Shown piece after piece: positions 7,799 to 42,509 of a DNA stretch of 64,000 nt (positions within the stretch are counted from its first letter, which is position 1; each line of letters starts with the position of its first letter). The translations under genes were made by a program, and so were the position numbers. A model generated the notes under the pieces. That model was not told the DNA's origin. It made no database searches and was given only the letters and a program-made list of their open reading frames with translations. Source of the DNA: Escherichia coli (GTDB lineage Bacteria; Pseudomonadota; Gammaproteobacteria; Enterobacterales; Enterobacteriaceae). The stretch lies in the NCBI RefSeq assembly GCF_024298765.1, contig NZ_CP101210.1; one strand, written 5' to 3'.

Positions 7799-8009
7799 TA
7801 CTGAATTGTGATGGTTTGGTCTCCTGCACCCTTTTTTAATTTATATTGTTTATGTGAATATTATGCCTATGTTTATTATTTATATATATTATGGATGAAA
7901 ATCATTTAATTATTCACAATGTAAATATTTTATTGAAAGATATATGTCACAGATAATTTTTAATATATGCGTGAATATCCTTTAAGTTTTACTGAAGGAT
8001 AAAAATATT

Positions 8010-10667
8010 GTGACTTTCTTTTATTTCTGGGGAAAAACCCGACGCGGCGAGAAAGACGGGGGCGAAGACTATCACCTTCTTTGCTGGCATTCGCTGGATG
8101 TAGCCGCGATGGGCTATTTAATGGTTAAAAGCAATTGCTTCGGACTGGCTGGCTATTTTCGTCAATTAGGTTTCGCTGACACGGAGCTGGCAGCACAATT
8201 TTTCGCCTGGCTGCTGTGCTGGCACGATATTGGAAAATTTGCCCGCTCTTTTCAGCAACTTTACCTGCACCCACAACTCAAGGTTCCGGAAGGCGCAAGA
8301 AAGAATTACGAAAAGATCTCTCATTCAACGCTGGGCTACTGGTTGTGGAACCATTATTTAAGTGAATGTCAGGAGTTGCTTCCTTCATCTTCACTCTCTC
8401 CGCGCAAACTTAAACGGGTGATGGAGATGTGGATGCCCATGACTACCGGGCATCATGGTCGACCCCCTGAGCGTATGGATGAACTGGATAATTTTCTGCC
8501 TGAAGACAAAGGTGCCGCACGAGATTTTCTCCTTGCAATCAAGGTACTGTTTCCGCTCATAGAGATCCCCACATTCTGGGATGATGACGAGGGCGTTGAA
8601 CTTATAAAACAACTTTCCTGGTATATCTCTGCAACCGTCGTACTTGCAGACTGGACGGGATCGTCAACGCGATATTTTCCACGCGTTGCACAGGCAATGG
8701 ATATTGAAGATTACTGGCAGAAAACTTTAGTTCAGGCTCAAAACGCCTTAACCGTCTTTCCTCCAAAAGCAGAAAGCGCGCCTTTCACCGGAATTAATAC
8801 GCTGTTTCCTTTTATTGAGAATCCGACACCGCTACAGCAAAAGGTGCTGGATCTGGATATCAGCCAGCCGGGACCACAGTTATTTATTCTGGAGGATGTA
8901 ACCGGCGCAGGTAAAACAGAAGCGGCGCTTATCCTGGCGCACAGGTTGATGGCTGCGGGGAAAGCGCAGGGTTTGTTTTTTGGCCTGCCAACAATGGCAA
9001 CGGCCAATGCCATGTACGATCGACTGGTCAAAACCTGGCTTGCTTTCTATTCGCCAGAGTCCCGCCCCAGCCTGGTGCTGGCACACAGTGCCCGAACATT
9101 AATGGACCGCTTTAATGAATCACTCTGGTCCGGTGATTTAGTCGGGTCAGAAGAACCGGATGAACAAACGTTCAGTCAGGGATGTGCGGCCTGGTTTGCC
9201 GACAGTAACAAGAAGGCGCTACTGGCTGAAATTGGCGTCGGCACGCTGGATCAGGCGATGATGGCTGTGATGCCGTTCAAACATAATAATCTGCGGCTTC
9301 TGGGACTGAGTAACAAAATCCTGCTGGCTGATGAGATCCATGCCTGTGACGCTTACATGTCATGCATTCTTGAAGGGCTGATCGAGCGGCAGGCGCGTGG
9401 CGGAAACAGCGTCATTTTGCTTTCTGCCACGTTATCTCAACAGCAGCGCGACAAACTCGTCGCCGCCTTTGCGCGTGGTATAGAGGGCCAGCAAGAAGCT
9501 CCGTTGCTGGAAAAGGATGATTACCCCTGGCTGACGCACGTTACGAAATCCGATGTGCATTCACACCGGGTAGCGACGCGCAAAGACGTTGAGCGCAGCG
9601 TGAGTGTGGGTTGGCTTCATAGCGAACAAGAGTGTATTGCGCGTATCGAATCGGCGGTAAGTCAGGGGAAATGTATCGCCTGGATCCGAAATTCTGTCGA
9701 TGACGCCATCCAGGTTCATCGTCAGTTACTTGCCCGCGGCGTCATTCCTGCTTCCAGCCTTTCACTTTTTCATAGCCGCTTTGCTTTTAGCGATCGCCAG
9801 CGAATTGAAACGGAGACGCTGGCACGCTTTGGTAAAGAAGACTGTTCACAGCGTGCCGGAAAAGTCCTCATTTGTACTCAAGTCCTGGAGCAGAGCGTTG
9901 ACTGCGACCTGGACGAAATGATTTCCGACCTTGCCCCTGTTGATTTACTGATCCAGCGGGCGGGGCGATTACAGCGGCATATCCGCGATATTAATGGTCT
10001 GTTAAAGCGTGACGGAAAAGACGAGCGTTCCCCTCCTGAATTTCTGATTCTGGCTCCCGTCTGGGACGACTCTCCGGGTGACGAATGGTTTGGCAGCGCC
10101 ATGCGTAACAGTGCATATGTCTACCCCGATCATGGGCGAATCTGGCTGACGCAGCGTGTGCTGCGTGAGCAAGGCGCTATTCAGATGCCACACGCAGCCC
10201 GGCTTCTTATTGAATCAGTCTACGGTGAAGACGTGGCAATGCCGGAAGGATTTGCCCGCAGTGAGCAGGAGCAAGTGGGCAAATATTACTGCGATCGCGC
10301 AATGGCTAAAAAGTTTGTCCTGAACTTCAAGCCTGGCTATGCCGCCAATATCAACGATTACCTTCCGGAAAAGCTGTCGACACGTCTGGCTGAGGAATCT
10401 GTTTCCCTGTGGCTGGCTACCTGTATTGACGGTGTGGTGAAGCCTTATGCCACCGGTGCTCACGCATGGGAAATGAGCGTTGTCAGAGTGCGTCGAAGCT
10501 GGTGGAAAAAACATCGGGATGAGTTTTCTTTACTGGAAGGGGATGCGTTCAGGCAGTGGTGCATTGAACAGCGGCAAGATCCGGAGATGGCAAACGTGAT
10601 TTTAGTCACCGATGACGAAAGTTGCGGGTATTCGGCTATGGAAGGATTGACTGGCAAGGTTGGTTGA
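8010..10667 (+). CDS. cas3: CRISPR-associated helicase/nuclease Cas3 (type I-E)
   Basis: 885-aa ORF starting at GTG 8010 (AAGGA 10 nt upstream); HD-nuclease-like N-terminus (H..LDVAA, HDIGK) and DEAD/DEAH helicase motifs (GAGKTEAA, DEIH); first gene of the cas operon. Confidence 0.9.
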   Translation: MTFFYFWGKTRRGEKDGGEDYHLLCWHSLDVAAMGYLMVKSNCFGLAGYFRQLGFADTELAAQFFAWLLCWHDIGKFARSFQQLYLHPQLKVPEGARKNYEKISHSTLGYWLWNHYLSECQELLPSSSLSPRKLKRVMEMWMPMTTGHHGRPPERMDELDNFLPEDKGAARDFLLAIKVLFPLIEIPTFWDDDEGVELIKQLSWYISATVVLADWTGSSTRYFPRVAQAMDIEDYWQKTLVQAQNALTVFPPKAESAPFTGINTLFPFIENPTPLQQKVLDLDISQPGPQLFILEDVTGAGKTEAALILAHRLMAAGKAQGLFFGLPTMATANAMYDRLVKTWLAFYSPESRPSLVLAHSARTLMDRFNESLWSGDLVGSEEPDEQTFSQGCAAWFADSNKKALLAEIGVGTLDQAMMAVMPFKHNNLRLLGLSNKILLADEIHACDAYMSCILEGLIERQARGGNSVILLSATLSQQQRDKLVAAFARGIEGQQEAPLLEKDDYPWLTHVTKSDVHSHRVATRKDVERSVSVGWLHSEQECIARIESAVSQGKCIAWIRNSVDDAIQVHRQLLARGVIPASSLSLFHSRFAFSDRQRIETETLARFGKEDCSQRAGKVLICTQVLEQSVDCDLDEMISDLAPVDLLIQRAGRLQRHIRDINGLLKRDGKDERSPPEFLILAPVWDDSPGDEWFGSAMRNSAYVYPDHGRIWLTQRVLREQGAIQMPHAARLLIESVYGEDVAMPEGFARSEQEQVGKYYCDRAMAKKFVLNFKPGYAANINDYLPEKLSTRLAEESVSLWLATCIDGVVKPYATGAHAWEMSVVRVRRSWWKKHRDEFSLLEGDAFRQWCIEQRQDPEMANVILVTDDESCGYSAMEGLTGKVG

Positions 10668-16529: not shown

Positions 16530-16625
16530 GTTATCCGTTCTTTAAAAATAAGGAAATGTTTTAATTTAGTTGGTAGATTGTTGATGCGGAATAAATTTGT
16601 TTAAAAACAGTTATGTATGCTTAGT
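16530..16625 (+). promoter_or_regulatory. CRISPR leader (AT-rich, array promoter and integration site)
   Basis: About 96-bp AT-rich segment between the cas2 stop and the first repeat. Confidence 0.6.
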
Positions 16626-17935
16626 GTGTTCCCCGCGCCAGCGGGGATAAACCGCATTGAAAACATTGCCTTTATTTTATTTTTTGGTGTTCCCCGCGCC
16701 AGCGGGGATAAACCGGTGCCGCCGCTGGGCACTTCCTTCCCGTGAGTGTGTTCCCCGCGCCAGCGGGGATAAACCGCCCTGATAGCGTCCAGTTGAATGC
16801 GCGCCCGCGTGTTCCCCGCGCCAGCGGGGATAAACCGGCAGGCACGGGCAATATCAGACTCGGTCAAAGGTGTTCCCCGCGCCAGCGGGGATAAACCGCT
16901 CGGTTGTTTTCATATTACCGGCCTGCCACTGTGTTCCCCGCGCCAGCGGGGATAAACCGACAATATCCCGGACCGGGCGCTGATTTAGTCAGTGTTCCCC
17001 GCGCCAGCGGGGATAAACCGCGGACGGTGGGAATATAGAAAATCCGTCCACCGTGTTCCCCGCGCCAGCGGGGATAAACCGTTATACTCTTTTCATCGAC
17101 TAAGGAGGGGAGGGTGTTCCCCGCGCCAGCGGGGATAAACCGCAATAACGCAGCATCCAGGAAGCTGTTTCCGCGTGTTCCCCGCGCCAGCGGGGATAAA
17201 CCGCGATCGGTGAAGAGGTCCGCGAAATACTCACTGTGTTCCCCGCGCCAGCGGGGATAAACCGGCGATAGTTGATTCAGCCGCGCCAGCGAATGTGTGT
17301 TCCCCGCGCCAGCGGGGATAAACCGGGGCCGCCGCGAATTTACACACGATTCAATACGTGTTCCCCGCGCCAGCGGGGATAAACCGAACTGGTGCGCGAC
17401 GGCTGGCTAACAAAACGAGTGTTCCCCGCGCCAGCGGGGATAAACCGCGTGGCTGCGCTGGCCGTTGCAGCAGTTTGATGTGTTCCCCGCGCCAGCGGGG
17501 ATAAACCGCGTAAACGCCCCGTCGCCATTAATTTCGGGGTGTGTTCCCCGCGCCAGCGGGGATAAACCGTGGGATGAGCAAATAACGTCGTTTCCTAGAA
17601 AGTGTTCCCCGCGCCAGCGGGGATAAACCGCCGCCGTGCCAGTGATCCTCATACGGCCTGTTGTGTTCCCCGCGCCAGCGGGGATAAACCGAAATTAAGA
17701 ACGGCGTAAACGACGGCAGCATGGTGTTCCCCGCGCCAGCGGGGATAAACCGGTGATGATTCAGAGCAGACATTAGCCCGCGCTGTGTTCCCCGCGCCAG
17801 CGGGGATAAACCGGGTAAAAACACGGTCTGAACCGACATTCATGTGTGTTCCCCGCGTCAGCGGGGATAAACCGGACGCACTGGATGCGATGATGGATAT
17901 CACTTAGAATTCCCCGCCCCTGCGGTAGAACTCCC
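16626..17935 (+). CRISPR. Type I-E CRISPR array: 21 repeats of GTGTTCCCCGCGCCAGCGGGGATAAACCG plus a degenerate terminal repeat, 21 spacers of 32 nt
   Basis: Repeats counted by hand at 16626, 16687, 16748 ... 17846 with an exact 61-bp period. Repeat 21 (17846-17874) carries one substitution (GCGTCAGCG); the terminal repeat 17907-17935 (GAATTCCCCGCCCCTGCGGTAGAACTCCC) matches about 18/29. Confidence 0.97.
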
Positions 17936-26820: not shown

Positions 26821-27960
26821 ATGAGCGCGGGAAGCCCAAAATTCACCGTTCGCCGCATTGCGGCTTTGTCACTGGTTTCGCTATGGCTGGCAGGCTGTTC
26901 TGACACTTCAAATCCACCGGCACCGGTCAGCTCCGTTAATGGCAATGCGCCTGCAAATACCAATTCTGGTATGTTGATTACGCCGCCGCCGAAAATGGGG
27001 ACGACGTCTACAGCGCAGCAACCGCAAATTCAGCCGGTACAGCAGCCACAAATTCAGGCTACTCAACAACCGCAAATCCAGCCAGTACAGCCAGTAGCTC
27101 AGCAGCCGGTACAGATGGAAAACGGACGCATCGTCTACAACCGTCAGTATGGGAACATTCCGAAAGGCAGTTATAGCGGCAGTACCTATACCGTGAAAAA
27201 AGGCGACACACTTTTCTATATCGCCTGGATTACTGGCAACGATTTCCGTGACCTTGCTCAGCGCAACAATATTCAGGCACCATATGCGCTGAACGTCGGT
27301 CAGACCTTACAGGTGGGTAATGCTTCCGGTACGCCAATCACTGGCGGAAATGCCATTACCCAGGCCGACGCAGCAGAGCAAGGAGTTGTGATCAAGCCTG
27401 CACAAAATTCCACCGTTGCTGTTGCGTCGCAACCGACAATTACGTATTCTGAGTCTTCGGGTGAACAGAGTGCTAACAAAATGTTGCCGAACAACAAGCC
27501 AACTGCGACCACGGTCACAGCGCCTGTAACGGTACCAACAGCAAGCACAACCGAGCCGACTGTCAGCAGTACATCAACCAGTACGCCTATCTCCACCTGG
27601 CGCTGGCCGACTGAGGGCAAAGTGATCGAAACCTTTGGCGCTTCTGAGGGGGGCAACAAGGGGATTGATATCGCAGGCAGCAAAGGACAGGCAATTATCG
27701 CGACCGCAGATGGCCGCGTTGTTTATGCCGGTAACGCGCTGCGCGGCTACGGTAATCTGATTATCATCAAACATAATGATGATTACCTGAGTGCCTACGC
27801 CCATAACGACACAATGCTGGTCCGGGAACAACAAGAAGTGAAGGCGGGGCAAAAAATAGCAACCATGGGTAGCACCGGAACCAGTTCAACACGCTTGCAT
27901 TTTGAAATTCGTTACAAGGGGAAATCCGTAAACCCGCTGCGTTATTTGCCGCAGCGATAA
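26821..27960 (+). CDS. nlpD: murein hydrolase activator lipoprotein NlpD (LysM + M23 domain)
   Basis: 379-aa ORF with lipoprotein signal (LAGCS), Q/P-rich repeat linker and LysM/M23 regions; the rpoS promoter is known to lie within this gene in E. coli. Confidence 0.9.
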
Positions 27961-28022
27961 ATCGGCGGAACCAGGCTTTTGCTTGAATGTTCCGTCAAGG
28001 GATCACGGGTAGGAGCCACCTT

Positions 28023-29015
28023 ATGAGTCAGAATACGCTGAAAGTTCATGATTTAAATGAAGATGCGGAATTTGATGAGAACGGAGTTGAGGTTTTTGAC
28101 GAAAAGGCCTTAGTAGAAGAGGAACCCAGTGATAACGATTTGGCCGAAGAGGAACTGTTATCGCAGGGAGCCACACAGCGTGTGCTGGACGCGACTCAGC
28201 TTTACCTTGGTGAGATTGGTTATTCACCACTGTTAACGGCCGAAGAAGAAGTTTATTTTGCGCGTCGCGCACTGCGTGGAGATGTCGCCTCTCGCCGCCG
28301 GATGATCGAGAGTAACTTGCGTCTGGTGGTAAAAATTGCCCGCCGTTATGGCAATCGTGGTCTGGCGTTGCTGGACCTGATCGAAGAGGGCAACCTGGGG
28401 CTGATCCGCGCGGTAGAGAAGTTTGACCCGGAACGTGGTTTCCGCTTCTCAACATACGCAACCTGGTGGATTCGCCAGACGATCGAACGGGCGATTATGA
28501 ACCAAACCCGTACTATTCGTTTGCCGATTCACATCGTAAAGGAGCTGAACGTTTACCTGCGAACCGCACGCGAGTTGTCCCATAAACTGGACCACGAACC
28601 AAGTGCGGAAGAGATCGCAGAGCAACTGGATAAGCCAGTTGATGACGTCAGCCGTATGCTTCGTCTTAACGAGCGCATTACCTCGGTAGACACCCCGCTG
28701 GGTGGTGATTCCGAAAAAGCGTTGCTGGACATCCTGGCCGATGAAAAAGAGAACGGTCCGGAAGATACCACGCAAGATGACGATATGAAGCAGAGCATCG
28801 TCAAATGGCTGTTCGAGCTGAACGCCAAACAGCGTGAAGTACTGGCACGTCGATTCGGTTTGCTGGGGTACGAAGCGGCAACACTGGAAGATGTAGGTCG
28901 TGAAATTGGCCTCACCCGTGAACGTGTTCGCCAGATTCAGGTTGAAGGCCTGCGCCGTTTGCGCGAAATCCTGCAAACGCAGGGGCTGAATATCGAAGCG
29001 CTGTTCCGCGAATAA
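28023..29015 (+). CDS. rpoS: RNA polymerase sigma factor RpoS (sigma-38)
   Basis: Track ORF 27987..29015; 330-aa protein from [21 protein letters not shown] recognised as RpoS; codon 33 is GAG (Glu). Confidence 0.95.
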
Positions 29016-29030
29016 GTAAGCATCTGTCAG

Positions 29031-29066
29031 AAAGGCCAGTCTCTTATGAGGCTGGCCTTTTTCTTT
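29031..29066 (+). terminator. Rho-independent terminator after rpoS
   Basis: 13-bp stem AAAGGCCAGTCTC / GAGGCTGGCCTTT with TTAT loop, followed by a T-run. Confidence 0.7.
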
Positions 29067-29092
29067 TGTATGGGGAGTTGGTATGTTTCGTC

Positions 29093-29125
29093 GCCTGGAT
29101 AAGACACGTCAGCGTCCCATCCGGC
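29093..29125. repeat. REP-like palindrome
   Basis: GCCTGGATAAGACACGTCAGCGTCCCATCCGGC, a REP-type imperfect palindrome between rpoS and hosA. Confidence 0.5.
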
Positions 29126-29135
29126 AATCAACATC

Positions 29136-29543
29136 CTATTTGCTCATCATCTTGCGCACCAGCTGCATAAACAGCTCCTGCTCTTCTCCACTCAAACGCC
29201 CCAAAAATTCCTCATCCACACTGTCACCTATCGGTATCGCCGCAGCAAGTATCTTTTCGCCTTCGGCAGTCAGCCAGACAAAGCGTCGCCGCTTGTCAGC
29301 GGCGTCATGTTCACGTCTGACTAAGCCACGATTTTCCATTCTTGCCAACATTTCTGCCAGCGTTGCTTTGGTGCTGACTGCTGCTTCTATCAGTGCCACC
29401 TGTTCGATACCAGGCTTATCAGCAATGGCGCGCATCACCGCGTACTGTGGTTTGGTCAGGTCAGGTAACTCGTGCTGCCAGCGAGCTGTATGCTGCTGAA
29501 AAAGCTGTCGTAACTGATGGAACGCTTTATTTCGTAACGCCAT
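29136..29543 (-). CDS. hosA: MarR/SlyA-family transcriptional regulator HosA
   Basis: Track ORF 29136..29576; likely 135-aa protein from MALRNKAFHQLRQLF; winged-helix MarR-like sequence; recognised as the SlyA homologue found next to rpoS in non-K-12 E. coli. Confidence 0.75.
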   Translation of the reverse strand: MALRNKAFHQLRQLFQQHTARWQHELPDLTKPQYAVMRAIADKPGIEQVALIEAAVSTKATLAEMLARMENRGLVRREHDAADKRRRFVWLTAEGEKILAAAIPIGDSVDEEFLGRLSGEEQELFMQLVRKMMSK

Positions 29544-29658
29544 GTAAACTCCGGGCAAACTATCTGCCGCTATCATAGCGGTTTTTCAGTGACGAAGAAG
29601 ATGTTGTTACTTTTCAGCGCTTGCCGCGATGAAAACAGAGGCGTATTTTAATAATAAC

Positions 29659-29672
29659 GTTCGTATACGAAC
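29659..29672. promoter_or_regulatory. Perfect 14-bp palindrome GTTCGTATACGAAC upstream of ecdB (candidate MarR-type operator)
   Basis: Perfect dyad read from the sequence, 17 bp upstream of the ecdB start, in the hosA/ecdB divergent region. Confidence 0.45.
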
Positions 29673-29689
29673 AATTTAGAGAGTAAGCA

Positions 29690-30283
29690 ATGAAACTGAT
29701 CGTCGGGATGACAGGGGCTACCGGTGCGCCTCTTGGTGTGGCATTACTGCAAGCGCTGCGGGAGATGCCGAATGTCGAGACTCATCTGGTGATGTCGACG
29801 TGGGCGAAAACCACCATTGAACTGGAAACGCCTTACAGCGCCCGCGATGTTGCTGCCCTCGCAGACTTCAGCCATAACCCGGCGGATCAGGCGGCGACCA
29901 TCTCCTCAGGTTCCTTTCGTACCGACGGCATGATCGTTATTCCGTGCAGTATGAAAACGCTCGCCGGTATCCGTGCCGGTTACGCCGATGGCCTGGTGGG
30001 GCGCGCGGCGGACGTCGTGCTCAAAGAAGGCCGCAAACTAGTGCTGGTGCCGCGTGAAATGCCGCTTAGCACCATCCATCTCGAAAATATGCTCGCACTT
30101 TCACGCATGGGCGTGGCGATGGTGCCGCCGATGCCTGCCTTTTATAACCATCCCGAAACGGTAGATGACATTGTCCACCACGTGGTAGCCCGCGTGCTGG
30201 ATCAATTTGGCCTCGAACATCCCCACGCCAGGCGCTGGCAAGGATTGCCGCAGGTCCGGAATTTTTCTCAGGAGAATGAATAA
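29690..30283 (+). CDS. ecdB: UbiX-family flavin prenyltransferase (Pad1-like; partner of a UbiD-type decarboxylase)
   Basis: 197-aa ORF MKLIVGMTGATGAPLG... typical UbiX/Pad1 fold; symbol from memory of E. coli O157-type annotation (also called pad1/kpdB). Confidence 0.8.
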   Translation: MKLIVGMTGATGAPLGVALLQALREMPNVETHLVMSTWAKTTIELETPYSARDVAALADFSHNPADQAATISSGSFRTDGMIVIPCSMKTLAGIRAGYADGLVGRAADVVLKEGRKLVLVPREMPLSTIHLENMLALSRMGVAMVPPMPAFYNHPETVDDIVHHVVARVLDQFGLEHPHARRWQGLPQVRNFSQENE

Positions 30284-31710
30284 TGGCATTTGATGATTTA
30301 CGCAGCTTTTTACAGGCGCTTGATGACCACGGCCAGTTACTGAAAATCAGCGAAGAGGTGAACGCGGAACCGGATCTGGCAGCCGCAGCCAACGCCACCG
30401 GGCGTATCGGCGACGGCGCGCCCGCGCTTTGGTTTGATAATATTCGCGGCTTTATCGATGCCCGCGTGGCAATGAACACCATCGGTTCCTGGCAGAACCA
30501 CGCGATTTCCCTCGGCCTGCCGCCAAACACCCCGGTTAAAAAACAGATTGATGAGTTTATCCGCCGCTGGGATAACTTCCCCATTGCCCCGGAGCGCCGC
30601 GCCAATCCAGCCTGGGCGCAGAACACCGTCGATGGCGACGAGATCAACCTGTTCGATATTCTGCCACTGTTTCGTTTAAACGACGGTGATGGCGGTTTCT
30701 ATCTCGACAAAGCGTGCGTGGTTTCCCGCGATCCGCTTGATCCGGATAACTTCGGCAAGCAGAACGTCGGCATCTACCGTATGGAAGTGAAGGGTAAGCG
30801 TAAGCTCGGTCTGCAACCGGTGCCGATGCACGATATCGCCCTGCATCTGCATAAAGCGGAAGAGCGCGGTGAAGATCTGCCGATTGCAATCACGCTCGGT
30901 AACGATCCGATCATCACCCTGATGGGGGCCACGCCGCTGAAATACGATCAGTCTGAGTATGAAATGGCAGGCGCGCTGCGCGAAAGCCCGTACCCGATCG
31001 CCACCGCCCCGCTGACCGGTTTTGATGTGCCGTGGGGCTCGGAAGTGATCCTCGAAGGGGTCATCGAAAGCCGTAAACGCGAAATCGAAGGGCCGTTCGG
31101 TGAGTTTACCGGGCACTACTCCGGCGGGCGTAATATGACCGTCGTGCGCATTGATAAAGTCTCTTATCGCAGCAAACCCATTTTTGAATCGCTCTATCTC
31201 GGGATGCCGTGGACGGAAATCGACTACCTGATGGGGCCAGCCACCTGCGTGCCGCTGTATCAGCAACTGAAAGCCGAGTTCCCGGAAGTGCAGGCGGTGA
31301 ACGCCATGTACACCCACGGCCTTCTGGCGATTATCTCCACCAAAAAACGCTACGGCGGCTTTGCCCGCGCGGTGGGCCTGCGTGCGATGACCACGCCGCA
31401 CGGTCTGGGCTACGTGAAGATGGTGATTATGGTCGATGAAGACGTTGATCCGTTCAACCTGCCGCAGGTGATGTGGGCGCTCTCCTCGAAAGTGAACCCG
31501 GCAGGGGATTTGGTGCAGTTGCCGAATATGTCCGTGCTGGAACTCGACCCCGGCTCAAGCCCGGCCGGTATCACCGACAAGCTGATTATCGACGCCACCA
31601 CGCCTGTCGCTCCGGACAACCGTGGTCACTACAGCCAGCCGGTGGTGGATTTACCGGAAACCAAAGCCTGGGCTGAAAAACTGACCGCTATGCTGGCCGC
31701 ACGTCAATAA
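30283..31710 (+). CDS. ecdC: UbiD-family (prenyl-FMN dependent) aromatic acid decarboxylase, catalytic subunit
   Basis: 475-aa ORF, start overlapping the ecdB stop; recognised as the UbiD family (yclC-like). Confidence 0.8.
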   Translation: MAFDDLRSFLQALDDHGQLLKISEEVNAEPDLAAAANATGRIGDGAPALWFDNIRGFIDARVAMNTIGSWQNHAISLGLPPNTPVKKQIDEFIRRWDNFPIAPERRANPAWAQNTVDGDEINLFDILPLFRLNDGDGGFYLDKACVVSRDPLDPDNFGKQNVGIYRMEVKGKRKLGLQPVPMHDIALHLHKAEERGEDLPIAITLGNDPIITLMGATPLKYDQSEYEMAGALRESPYPIATAPLTGFDVPWGSEVILEGVIESRKREIEGPFGEFTGHYSGGRNMTVVRIDKVSYRSKPIFESLYLGMPWTEIDYLMGPATCVPLYQQLKAEFPEVQAVNAMYTHGLLAIISTKKRYGGFARAVGLRAMTTPHGLGYVKMVIMVDEDVDPFNLPQVMWALSSKVNPAGDLVQLPNMSVLELDPGSSPAGITDKLIIDATTPVAPDNRGHYSQPVVDLPETKAWAEKLTAMLAARQ

Positions 31711-31720
31711 GGAGAACAAG

Positions 31721-31957
31721 ATGATTTGTCCACGTTGTGCCGATGAACAGATTGAAGTGATGGCGAAATCGCCGGTAAAAGATGTCTGGATGGTCTACCA
31801 GTGCCAGCATTGCCTCTATACCTGGCGCGATACCGAACCGCTACGCCGCACCAGCCGCGAACATTATCCCGAAGCGTTCCGCATGACGCAGAAAGATATT
31901 GATGACGCGCCGATGGTGCCGAGCATCCCGCCGCTGCTGGCGGAAGGTAAGCGCTAA
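31721..31957 (+). CDS. ecdD: small subunit of the phenolic acid decarboxylase (YclD-like, Cys-rich)
   Basis: 78-aa ORF with CxxC...CxxC spacing, directly downstream of the UbiD-like gene. Confidence 0.65.
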   Translation: MICPRCADEQIEVMAKSPVKDVWMVYQCQHCLYTWRDTEPLRRTSREHYPEAFRMTQKDIDDAPMVPSIPPLLAEGKR

Positions 31958-31994: not shown

Positions 31995-33359
31995 TCAAAT
32001 TACCGCCCATACGCACCAGGTAATTAAGAATCCGGTAAAACCGAGAATGGTCGTTAACACTGTCCAGGTTTTCAGACCGTCTGCTACCGACAACCCCAGA
32101 TATTTGGTCACAATCCAGAACCCTGAGTCATTAATATGTGACGCACCAAGCCCACCAAAGCAGGCTGCCAGCGTCACCAATACGCACTGAATCGGATTCA
32201 ATCCCATCACCGCTTCTGAGAGTAACCCGCCGGTTGTCAGGATTGCTACGGTTGCTGATCCCTGCGATGCACGCAGCGCCAGTGAAATAATAAATGCGGC
32301 TGGTAACAGAGGCAGGTCAATCATTTGTAGCATGTTGGCAAGGGCTTTGCCGACGCCCGATTCCACCAGCACTTTGCCAAATACCCCTCCAGCACCAGTA
32401 ACCAAAATCACTACCGCCGCAGTGGGAAGGGCTGAGCCCATAATGTCGCTGGTGTGTTGTAAGCTCCAGCCGCGACGTAAAGCCAATAACCAGAATGCCA
32501 GCACCAGCGCAATCATTAGAGCTACCATTGGTGAGCCGATCAGCTGTAGCGTACCAAGCAGGGGATGCGAAGGCGGCATCAGTGTTGCGGAAACCGTACC
32601 CGCCATGATAATCGCGATAGGAATAACAATTAGCGAGGTGACCAGCGCGACGCCCGGTGGATTTATTTTATCGCTTAATTTTGTCGCGCCTTCCTCACTG
32701 GCCGGAGCCAGTTGCATCTGTTCCAGTACCTCGACCGACATCGCATATTGGCGCTTATTGATTATTTTCGCTGCAAAGTAGCCAACAATCCCTACGGGAA
32801 TAGAAATCGCAATACCGATGATGGTTAGCCAGCCGATGTCTGCGTGGAGTAACCCCGCTGCGGCGACAGGGCCTGGATGCGGCGGTACCGCCACGTGAAC
32901 AGTGAGCATGATCCCAGCGACAGGCAGGCCAAATTTGAGTGGTGATATTTTGGCAACCTTGGCAAAACCGTAAATGATTGGCGCAAGAATAATAAAGCCG
33001 ACATCAAAGAAGACGGGAATACCGAGGAAGAACGCTGCCAGAGTCAGCGCAGCGATAGTTCGTTTGTCGCCTAACTTGCGACTGAAATAATTAGCCAGTG
33101 ACTCTGCACCACCAGAGTGTTCGATCATACGCCCCAGCATAGCGCCCAGACCAATAATAATAGTGACGGAACCAAGCACACCGCCCATCCCGGCGATCAT
33201 CACTTTACCCACTTCGCCCGCCGGTATACCCGCCGCAAGTGCGACTAACAGGCTGACGAGGAGCAGAGCAACGAATGGTTGTACCTTTGCCTTGATGACC
33301 AGCAGCAACAGCATGATTACGCCAGCTAACGCAATGCATAACAATGTAATTGTGGACAT
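31995..33359 (-). CDS. ygbN: GntP-family permease YgbN
   Basis: 454-aa polytopic membrane ORF recognised as YgbN. Confidence 0.85.
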   Translation of the reverse strand: MSTITLLCIALAGVIMLLLLVIKAKVQPFVALLLVSLLVALAAGIPAGEVGKVMIAGMGGVLGSVTIIIGLGAMLGRMIEHSGGAESLANYFSRKLGDKRTIAALTLAAFFLGIPVFFDVGFIILAPIIYGFAKVAKISPLKFGLPVAGIMLTVHVAVPPHPGPVAAAGLLHADIGWLTIIGIAISIPVGIVGYFAAKIINKRQYAMSVEVLEQMQLAPASEEGATKLSDKINPPGVALVTSLIVIPIAIIMAGTVSATLMPPSHPLLGTLQLIGSPMVALMIALVLAFWLLALRRGWSLQHTSDIMGSALPTAAVVILVTGAGGVFGKVLVESGVGKALANMLQMIDLPLLPAAFIISLALRASQGSATVAILTTGGLLSEAVMGLNPIQCVLVTLAACFGGLGASHINDSGFWIVTKYLGLSVADGLKTWTVLTTILGFTGFLITWCVWAVI

Positions 33360-38806: not shown

Positions 38807-41368
38807 TTACACCAGACTCTTCAAGCGATAAATCCACTCCAGCGCCTGACGCGGGGTGAGTGAATCTGGGTCGAGATTTTCCAGTGCTTCGACCGCAGGC
38901 GACGTTTCTTCTGGCACTGACAGCAAAGACATTTGCGTACCATCCACTTGCGTCGCGGCGGCGTTCGGCGAAATGCTTTCCAGCTCACGCAGTTTTTGCC
39001 GTGCGCGCTTAATAACCTCTTTTGGCACGCCGGCCAGAGCTGCAACCGCCAGGCCGTAGCTTTTGCTCGCTGCGCCATCCTGCACGCTGTGCATAAAGGC
39101 AATGGTGTCGCCGTGCTCCAGTGCATCGAGATGCACGTTGGCGACGCCTTCCATTTTCTCCGGTAACTGGGTCAGCTCGAAATAGTGGGTAGCAAACAAC
39201 GTCAACGCTTTAATCTTATTCGCCAGATTTTCCGCGCACGCCCACGCCAGCGACAGACCATCGTAAGTGGACGTTCCACGCCCAATCTCATCCATCAGCA
39301 CCAGACTGTACTCGGTGGCGTTATGTAAAATATTGGCGGTTTCGGTCATTTCCACCATAAAGGTTGAACGCCCGGATGCCAGATCATCCGCTGCCCCTAC
39401 GCGGGTAAAGATGCGATCGATAGGTCCAATCTCGACTTTTTGTGCCGGTACATAGCTGCCGATGTAGGCCATCAGCGCAATCAGTGCGGTCTGGCGCATA
39501 TAGGTACTTTTACCGCCCATATTCGGACCGGTAATGATCAACATGCGACGCTGCGGCGACAGGTTCAGCGGGTTGGCGATAAACGGCTCATTCAGCACCT
39601 GTTCAACCACCGGATGGCGGCCTTCGGTGATGCGAATACCCGGTTTATCAATAAAGGTCGGGCAGGTGTAGTTCAGCGTATAGGCCCGTTCCGCCAGGTT
39701 CACCAGCACGTCGAGTTCCGCCAGCGCGCTCGCGCTCTGTTGCAACGCTTCCAGATGCGGCAACAGCAGGTCGAACAACTCTTCATAAAGCTGTTTTTCC
39801 AGTGCCAGTGCTTTGCCTTTTGAAGTGAGAACTTTGTCTTCGTACTCTTTTAGCTCTGGAATAATGTAGCGCTCGGCGTTTTTCAGCGTCTGGCGACGCA
39901 TGTAATTGATGGGTGCCAGATGGCTTTGTCCACGGCTGATCTGAATGTAATAACCATGAACCGCGTTAAAGCCGACTTTCAGGGTGTCCAGGCCAGTACG
40001 TTCACGCTCGCGGACTTCCAGACGCTCCAGATAATCGGTCGCGCCGTCAGCCAGCGCGCGCCATTCATCCAGTTCTTCGTTATAACCAGTCGCAATAACA
40101 CCACCGTCGCGTACCAGCACCGGCGGCGTGTCGATGATTGCTCGCTCCAGCAGGTCGCGCAGTTCGGCAAACTCGCCCATCTTCTCACGCAGTGCTTGTA
40201 CCGGGGCGCTATCGACACCTTCCAGTTGCGCGCGCAGCTCCGGCAGTTGCTGGAAAGCGTGACGCATACGGGCCAGATCGCGTGGACGAGCAGTTCGTAA
40301 AGCCAGACGCGCCAGAATACGTTCCAGGTCGCCGACCTGACGCAGTACCGGCTGCAGCTCGGCGGTGAAATCCTGCAATGCGCCAATAGTTTGCTGGCGC
40401 TCAAGCAACACGCGGGTATCGCGCACTGGCATATGCAGCCAGCGTTTCAGCATACGACTACCCATCGGCGTTACAGTACAGTCGAGCACTGAAGCCAGCG
40501 TATTTTCCGCACCGCCGGCCAGGTTCTGAGTAATTTCCAGGTTACGACGCGTCGCGGCATCCATAATGATGCTGTCCTGCTGACGTTCCATAGTGATAGA
40601 ACGAATATGCGGCAGGGTCGTGCGTTGGGTATCTTTCGCATACTGCAACAGACAACCGGCAGCACAAAGTCCGCGTGGTGCGTTCTCCACACCAAAACCG
40701 ACCAGATCTCGGGTGCCAAATTGCAGGTTCAATTGCTGGCGAGCGGTGTCGATTTCAAACTCCCACAGCGGGCGACGACGCAGGCCGCGGCGACCTTCAA
40801 TCAGCGACATCTCGGCGAAATCTTCCGCATACAGTAATTCCGCTGGATTCGTACGTTGCAGTTCTGCCGCCATCGTTTCGCGGTCCGCCGGTTCGCTCAG
40901 GCGAAAACGCCCGGAGCTGATATCCAGCGTGGCGTAGCCGAACCCCTTGCTGTCCTGCCAGATAGCCGCCAGCAGGTTGTCCTGACGTTCCTGCAACAGC
41001 GCTTCATCGCTGATGGTGCCCGGCGTAACGATACGGACAACTTTGCGCTCGACCGGCCCTTTGCTGGTCGCCGGATCGCCAATCTGTTCACAAATAGCAA
41101 CCGATTCGCCCTGATTCACCAGTTTGGCGAGGTAGTTTTCCACCGCATGGTAGGGAATCCCCGCCATCGGGATCGGCTCTCCCGCCGAAGCACCGCGTTT
41201 GGTCAGTGAAATATCCAGCAGTTGCGATGCGCGTTTTGCGTCGTCATAAAACAGTTCATAAAAATCACCCATCCGGTAAAACAGCAGGATCTCGGGATGC
41301 TGGGCTTTCAGCTTGAGATACTGCTGCATCATGGGCGTATGGGCATCGAAATTTTCTATTGCACTCAT
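38807..41368 (-). CDS. mutS: DNA mismatch repair protein MutS
   Basis: 853-aa ORF recognised as MutS (Walker [10 protein letters not shown]). Confidence 0.97.
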
Positions 41369-41612
41369 GGGGTTATGTCCGGTTCCCTGATATTAAATGG
41401 GGTGTGATGGTTTTTATTTTCGTTGTAATCACATAAGGCGCACATGATACCGGAGTTAATCATTTCAGGGGAAGAAGCGAACGGCGAGTTCTTGATGGTG
41501 ATTCCGGGAAAGATGCTGTTTTGCAGCTTTTGCGTGATGACGATGAAACAAGATCGCAAAATTCGTCGGTTGAAGAAACCTCCTCCTTCAGAGACATAGT
41601 CCCCTTTAAAAT

Positions 41613-41635
41613 TAAGTTGTAATATAAATGCACCT
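41613..41635. promoter_or_regulatory. Candidate NsrR-type operator upstream of ygbA
   Basis: Half-sites AAGTTGTAATA / AAATGCACCTT separated by 1 nt; the second half (reverse complement AAGGTGCATTT) matches 10/11 of the NsrR half-site consensus as I recall it. ygbA is a known NsrR target in E. coli. Confidence 0.35.
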
Positions 41636-41653
41636 TAAGAGTATGGAGGCAGC

Positions 41654-41998
41654 ATGTCCGGCAAGCGTATCTCTCGTGAAAAACTGACGATTAAAAAAAT
41701 GATCGATCTTTATCAAGCGAAATGCCCGCAGGCGTCAGCGGAGCCGGAGCATTACGAGGCGTTGTTTGTTTACGCGCAAAAGCGGCTGGATAAATGTGTG
41801 TTCGGCGAAGAGAAACCAGCCTGTAAGCAGTGTCCGGTGCACTGTTACCAGCCTGCAAAGCGTGAAGAGATGAAACAGATTATGCGTTGGGCCGGGCCGA
41901 GAATGCTGTGGCGTCATCCGATCTTAACCGTGCGTCATCTCATCGATGACAAGCGTCCGGTGCCGGAGTTGCCAGAAAAATATCGTCCAAAGAAATAA
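41654..41998 (+). CDS. ygbA: nitrous oxide-stimulated promoter family protein YgbA
   Basis: 114-aa Cys-rich ORF in conserved position divergent from mutS. Confidence 0.8.
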   Translation: MSGKRISREKLTIKKMIDLYQAKCPQASAEPEHYEALFVYAQKRLDKCVFGEEKPACKQCPVHCYQPAKREEMKQIMRWAGPRMLWRHPILTVRHLIDDKRPVPELPEKYRPKK

Positions 41999-42036
41999 AT
42001 CTGCCGGAGAGCCATACTCTCCGGCAAATACGGCGC

Positions 42037-42465
42037 TTACGCTTTGGTGGCAATCAGGATGGCTGATGCTTTGATCAATGCAATAACGCGCGAGCCAGTG
42101 GTGAGTTTCATTTCATCCTGACTTTCATTTGTTACCACTGCCACAATTTCAAAACCCGCATCCGTTTTGATATGGACAGTGGCGTTCACTGCGCCTTCGG
42201 TGATTGTCGACACGCTGCCAGCAAACTGGTTGCGAGCAGAGAATTTCAGTCCACAGTCTTCCGTTGCCAGCGTGACCCACGGGGCTTTAATCAGGGCAAT
42301 CGCTTCTTTCCCTTTCGCCAGACCCAGCGCTTGCTGGCTGCTGTGAGTCACAATTGCCACCAGCTTTGCACCACCTGCCAGCGTCAGTTCTACTTCGTCA
42401 TTCACCGCGCCCATTGCTACTGCGCTAACTGTTCCGGTTAATTGATTTCTTGCTGAAACTGCCAT
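42037..42465 (-). CDS. tandem TOBE-domain molybdate/molybdenum-pterin-binding (Mop-like) protein
   Basis: Track ORF 42037..42504; likely start at 42465 (MAVSARNQLTG) after AAAGGAGG. Two repeats of the SARNQ...G.V...ALIKA TOBE/Mop pattern. Confidence 0.65.
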   Translation of the reverse strand: MAVSARNQLTGTVSAVAMGAVNDEVELTLAGGAKLVAIVTHSSQQALGLAKGKEAIALIKAPWVTLATEDCGLKFSARNQFAGSVSTITEGAVNATVHIKTDAGFEIVAVVTNESQDEMKLTTGSRVIALIKASAILIATKA

Positions 42466-42509
42466 ACTGCCTCCTTTCATTGAATGTTGATCGAGTATAA
42501 CCACATCTG

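Follow-up and report, generated by a model that had tools for sequence, protein, structure and literature searches.

Codon 33 of rpoS in a natural-type, non-K-12 Escherichia coli chromosome carries GAG (Glu), the ancestral allele

The rpoS gene in a 64,000-nucleotide stretch of an Escherichia coli chromosome (contig NZ_CP101210.1; hereafter, the window) differs from the K-12 reference at codon 33, and this raises the question of which of the two sequences is the oddity and what, if anything, the codon tells about the strain and its stress response. A sequence-only reading of the window had reported GAG (Glu) at this codon, stated that K-12 lineages commonly carry CAG or an amber TAG there, and concluded that the allele is wild-type-like and points to a non-laboratory background with an intact general stress response. 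Here we compare the gene and its surroundings with K-12, BL21(DE3), and the cystitis isolate MSHS 133, with complete E. coli genomes, and with other bacterial species. The features discussed are located in Table 1.

Table 1. Positions in the window of rpoS, its neighbors, and two segments that differ from reference strains
Feature	Position	Strand	Basis or remark
surE-pcm-nlpD-rpoS order	upstream of and including rpoS	+	window ORFs; annotation of the near-identical MSHS 133 locus and of K-12
nlpD	26821..27960	+	ORF and annotation; gene upstream of rpoS
presumed rpoS 5' leader	27456..28022	+	extent inferred from K-12 knowledge (567 nt in K-12)
rpoS CDS	28023..29015	+	330 codons plus stop, uninterrupted (translation); ATG at 28023, stop codon ends at 29015
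rpoS codon 33, GAG (Glu)	28119..28121	+	direct read and translation; starts at 28023 + 96
2,895-bp segment absent from K-12 and BL21	29062..31956	.	blastn breakpoints versus MG1655 and BL21
MarR/SlyA-like regulator	29136..29576	-	MSHS 133 annotation
hydroxyarylic acid decarboxylase subunit B	29690..30283		MSHS 133 annotation
hydroxyarylic acid decarboxylase subunit C	30283..31710		MSHS 133 annotation
hydroxyarylic acid decarboxylase subunit D	about 31721..31957		MSHS 133 annotation
ygbN (o454)	31995..33359	-	coordinates transferred from the MSHS 133 locus (+15999)
513-bp segment between ygbA and fhlA	41996..42508		replaces 47 bp of BL21
142-aa tandem TOBE-domain gene	42037..42465	-	inside the 513-bp segment

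The predicted product of the window gene scores 604.6 bits against the NCBIfam RpoS equivalog NF004207 (cutoff, 394), with residues 1-329 aligned to profile positions 1-329, and 480.7 bits against TIGR02394 (cutoff, 378.7). Sigma-70 regions 1.2, 2, 3, and 4 are placed by Pfam at residues 56-88, 94-163, 174-248, and 262-315, respectively, all within one open frame. With both equivalog cutoffs exceeded, all four regions present, and rpoS lying downstream of nlpD in the order surE-pcm-nlpD-rpoS, the gene belongs to the RpoS family by sequence and by position. Codon 33 is indeed GAG, by direct read and by translation alike, in the context gta gaa GAG gaa ccc (V31 E32 E33 E34 P35), which places the window in the 33E wild-type allele class. 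The residue falls in the N-terminal tail of sigma-S, which is acidic and poorly conserved, and precedes the Pfam Sigma70_r1_2 domain and all other conserved regions. TIGR02394, which models proteobacterial RpoS broadly, does not begin until residue 48, and a PDB search returned full-length, near-identical RpoS chains (presumably from E. coli) along with the more distant chains 7f0r and 7vf9, which align only from residue 52.

In direct alignments, the window rpoS differs from that of MG1655 and from that of W3110 at nine nucleotides each, namely, codon 33 and eight synonymous sites (codons 55, 119, 154, 183, 188, 191, 273, and 330). Codon 33 begins with G in the window, with C in MG1655 (CAG, Gln), and with T in W3110 (TAG, amber), and it is therefore polymorphic just as the sequence-only reading had stated. 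At the protein level, window RpoS is identical to MG1655 RpoS except for Q33E, and W3110 rpoS is marked in RefSeq as a pseudogene with an internal stop. The two K-12 alleles, 33Q (MG1655 type) and 33am (W3110 type), share the rest of the protein and the nlpD-rpoS arrangement with the window, but the amber allele truncates the protein, whereas the window frame is uninterrupted. The K-12 lineage is characterized at this codon by CAG or TAG (rarely TAT or GAG); the window carries neither CAG nor TAG. BL21(DE3) has GAG and an RpoS protein (WP_000081550.1) identical to that of the window, and the same accession is also the RpoS of MSHS 133; the BL21(DE3) gene differs from that of MG1655 at two nucleotides only, 97 and 942. 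Over its full nucleotide sequence, the window rpoS equals that of strains 104 and MSHS 133. Relative to the 33E (GAG) allele of natural isolates, the window thus has the same codon, amino acid, and protein, with no difference at the protein level, but its nucleotide sequence has the synonymous haplotype of the lineage to which it belongs, unlike K-12 at eight sites.

We surveyed codon 33 across 5,426 complete E. coli genomes with 55-nt megablast probes that carry the variant base at position 28, such that an exact 28-mer seed must span it. GAG was found in 5,058 of the 5,426 genomes (about 93%), CAG in 228, and TAG in 128; these counts total 5,414, which is the number of genomes with any rpoS match. 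For each of the two rarer alleles, carriers were checked by name in 60 rows (of 228 for CAG and of 128 for TAG). Among the rows listed, CAG carriers include MG1655 and its derivatives, BW25113, BW2952, MC4100, DH5alpha, DH1, XL1-Blue, Stbl4, EPI300, and HST04, and TAG carriers include W3110, EMG2, DSM 498, NCM3722, C600, J53 and its transconjugants, TG1, RP437, ET12567, and BLR(DE3). Nearly all of the carriers in these listed rows are K-12 derivatives or contain K-12 DNA, in agreement with the association of CAG and TAG with K-12 that the sequence-only reading had stated. The two exceptions are a single 28-nt partial CAG match in a 5.03-Mb genome and a TAG match in NCTC9008 that has 91.7% identity and an altered length; a few of the census genomes may be non-K-12 carriers of CAG or TAG or may have disrupted genes.

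Two observations on laboratory strains came out of the same survey. The K-12 amber rpoS is present in BLR(DE3), an expression strain of the B lineage (NZ_CP020368.1, 2691875..2691929), and its presence there has been explained by the transduction of about 85 kb of K-12 DNA together with a recA deletion (PMC5454202). Several CAG laboratory strains (DH5alpha, DH1, XL1-Blue, Stbl4, NEB5-alpha, and the TUM laboratory strains) match the 55-nt probe at 98.2%, which implies that these K-12 cloning strains share one extra substitution, absent in MG1655, no more than 27 nt from codon 33.

Beyond E. coli, we took a single genome from each bacterial species and searched it with a degenerate pattern beginning F-D-E-K-A-L, in which codons 31 and 33 were left free and the flanking residues were required. 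Among the matches listed, which come from 80 Enterobacteriaceae species representatives, every codon 33 encodes Glu (GAG in 78, GAA in 2), and the other free position, codon 31, varies (V, S, I, N). The listed matches span Escherichia (albertii, whittamii, and others), Salmonella, Citrobacter, Enterobacter, Leclercia, and Lelliottia, as well as Kosakonia, Pluralibacter, Atlantibacter, Cedecea, and Franconibacter. This uniformity argues that GAG/Glu is ancestral for the family and that the K-12 alleles are derived; on sequence comparison, then, GAG is the ancestral and normal allele of E. coli, and K-12 is the exception. The K-12 lineage would have gained the amber codon by GAG to TAG, and some K-12 stocks would then have passed from TAG to CAG (Gln), with each change requiring one step. 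Atlung 2002 reportedly proposed the amber allele as the earliest in K-12, with CAG, GAG, and TAT arising later by reversion; the presence of TAG in the early K-12 representatives EMG2, DSM 498, W3110, and NCM3722 fits this proposal. Given such changes within K-12, any comparison with a K-12 reference would differ at codon 33.

The codon 33 polymorphism is already known and has been in print since 2002-2004 (Atlung et al. 2002; Subbarayan & Sarkar 2004). The passage on K-12 in PMC2700278, which cites both of these studies, describes some K-12 strains with amber TAG at codon 33 and others with Glu, Tyr, or Gln. GAG is common in natural non-K-12 isolates and occurs in all VTEC strains studied by Dong et al. 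2009 (PMC2700278), 33E was found in every isolate analysed in PMC1852560, and C97G/Q33E was found in nearly every sequenced ECOR strain (Ferenci laboratory 2011, PMC3074542). These reports and the 5,058 GAG genomes of our census bear out the description of the window allele as wild-type-like. Strains with the amber codon have lowered sigma-S activity, for which they need a secondary translation start inside the gene (Subbarayan & Sarkar 2004, cited in a passage of PMC5454202); the window, whose codon is ancestral and unmutated, is not affected in this way.

We next consider the strain background. A 25-kb query centred on rpoS has 99.7% identity to MSHS 133, a Canadian cystitis isolate, and 98-99% identity to several avian and clinical strains. 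Flank identity to MSHS 133 is 99.99%, and over the whole 64 kb the window differs from it by 5 SNPs and three CRISPR spacers. Flanks shared with MG1655 have identities of 98.3% and 98.6% (119 + 67 mismatches over 12 kb), with 11 substitutions relative to K-12 upstream of rpoS. Directly after rpoS, where K-12 has ygbN, the 2,895-bp segment stands in place of 8 bp of K-12. The mutS-rpoS region, which is hypervariable, has reportedly been the subject of work by LeClerc, Herbelin, Kotewicz, and colleagues (1999-2003). In the classification of the o454-nlpD region by Ewers et al. 2014 (PMC4209514), K-12 represents pattern II; the window has neither the ygbN gene immediately downstream of rpoS nor the near-identical flanks that would mark K-12. 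It instead contains what defines pattern IV of the o454-nlpD (mutS-rpoS) region, a slyA/hosA-like MarR regulator with kpdB, kpdC, and kpdD between rpoS and o454/ygbN, with ygbN present; unlike pattern IV as published, it additionally has a longer ygbA-fhlA spacer with a TOBE-domain gene.

Because the eight synonymous differences in rpoS, the 2,895-bp insert, and the near-identity to MSHS 133 do not involve codon 33, they support the conclusion independently of it: as judged from these comparisons, the window is a natural-type, non-K-12 E. coli chromosome. An origin from a K-12 stock whose amber codon reverted to GAG would account for the codon, and K-12 strains with Glu at codon 33 do appear in the passage of PMC2700278 that cites Atlung 2002 and Subbarayan & Sarkar 2004. 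Such a revertant, however, would not explain eight synonymous rpoS differences, 11 substitutions upstream, 119 + 67 mismatches across flanks only 98.3-98.6% identical to MG1655, an insertion that K-12 is without, and 99.99% identity to a clinical isolate; we regard this origin as refuted, with a probability next to nil. The window rpoS is almost certainly the ordinary ancestral allele in a natural-type (non-K-12) chromosome. The proposal of a non-laboratory background consequently stands in part: non-K-12 is upheld by the eight synonymous sites, the insert, and the identity to MSHS 133, but GAG cannot serve as evidence of a non-laboratory strain, since GAG and an identical RpoS protein also occur in the laboratory strain BL21(DE3) and K-12 stocks with Glu33 have been published (in the same passage of PMC2700278).

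The sequence around rpoS also bears on whether the gene is likely to be used normally. In K-12, the main rpoS promoter lies inside nlpD, and the rpoS leader is a target of translational control by small RNAs. NlpD of the window is identical to K-12 NlpD across the 379-aa ORF, and the presumed leader differs from that of K-12 by only three substitutions, at -294, -183, and -162, all of them within nlpD and synonymous there. These positions presumably fall outside the DsrA/RprA/ArcZ pairing region near -100. From the full-length gene and the near-K-12 leader, we infer that rpoS would be expressed and that the sigma-S-dependent stress response would be normal. A weak general stress response despite an intact rpoS, through variation elsewhere (rssB, spoT/ppGpp, crl, hfq, or small RNAs), is unlikely but carries some weight: ECOR2 and ECOR22, with very low RpoS, share their RpoS amino acid sequence with ECOR69, which has the highest RpoS, and the levels of both RpoS and ppGpp are specific to the strain (PMC3074542). 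The gene map of the 64-kb window (ygcQ/cysJIH, cas, CRISPR, cysDNC, rpoS, mutS, hyp/hyc, and hypF) includes none of rssB, crl, hfq, spoT, or the ira genes, nor the small RNA regulators. Against a weak response stand the near-identity of the leader to that of K-12 and the exclusion here of nonsense and frameshift mutations in rpoS, which are the commonest cause of RpoS deficiency in isolates (PMC3074542, PMC2700278). With the regulators of RpoS level and activity located outside the window, and with the same RpoS sequence giving anything from very low to the highest levels in PMC3074542, the earlier claim of an intact general stress response holds only as far as an intact rpoS gene.

A functional meaning for residue 33 itself, in which Glu versus Gln would alter sigma-S activity or stability and the codon would predict a stress phenotype, is improbable. 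The Q33E difference "has similar functional activity" (PMC3074542), identical RpoS sequences span the range from very low to highest RpoS levels in the ECOR strains of the same study, and none of the conserved sigma-70 regions includes the residue; Glu33 sits in the N-terminal tail ahead of region 1.2 and is not known to have a special role. Codon 33 itself says little about function. A subtle role for Glu33 in the sigma-S tail, for example in the variability of RpoS-dependent phenotypes among 33E strains, seems more doubtful still, and we consider it very improbable. Were it true, K-12-based work with Gln33 would misrepresent the natural protein, and the window adds no evidence for such a role. 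The reading that we favor remains that of an ordinary ancestral allele.

Other features were noted elsewhere in the window. In the type I-E CRISPR array (16625..17889), spacers 4-6 counted from the cas2/leader side (16837..16990) are wholly unlike those of MSHS 133 and of the same length; such differences at internal rather than leader-end spacers are unusual for simple spacer acquisition. The three spacers of the window occur at 100% in four other genomes (14EC020, G12, CT282, and CT265), and we therefore rejected the difference as an anomaly and regard it as natural variation, probably the result of recombination between arrays. At cas3 (7967..10667), the MSHS 133 gene is annotated as "frameshifted", and its sequence is shared by the window, which has one long ORF (8010..10667; 885 aa; GTG start); this would limit the defect, if real, to the extreme 5' end. 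Near mutS, the segment between ygbA and fhlA gives a net gain of 466 bp, matching the longer of the two fhlA-mutS amplicons (1,673 versus 1,208 bp), and that longer amplicon, with its difference of 465 bp, was seen only in pattern III (B2) strains (PMC4209514). The combination of pattern IV at rpoS with, nevertheless, a long fhlA-mutS spacer suggests a mosaic. The 5' part of mutS and the mutS-ygbA spacer (40000..41995) have only 93.9% identity to BL21(DE3), whereas the nlpD-rpoS and ygbN segments reach about 99%. For a core gene of E. coli such divergence is unusually high, and it agrees with the horizontal exchange of mutS reported in PMC4209514.

As a discovery, the GAG codon matters very little, given that the polymorphism has long been documented and that GAG is the norm for the species and the family. 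Its use is practical: codon 33 is a quick genotyping marker, and GAG excludes nearly all K-12 stocks. In combination with the 2,895-bp insert, it assigns the window to a natural-type lineage near MSHS 133 and several avian and clinical isolates. For automated readers of genomes there is also a caution, that a mismatch to the K-12 reference at codon 33 of rpoS is an oddity of K-12 and not of the query.
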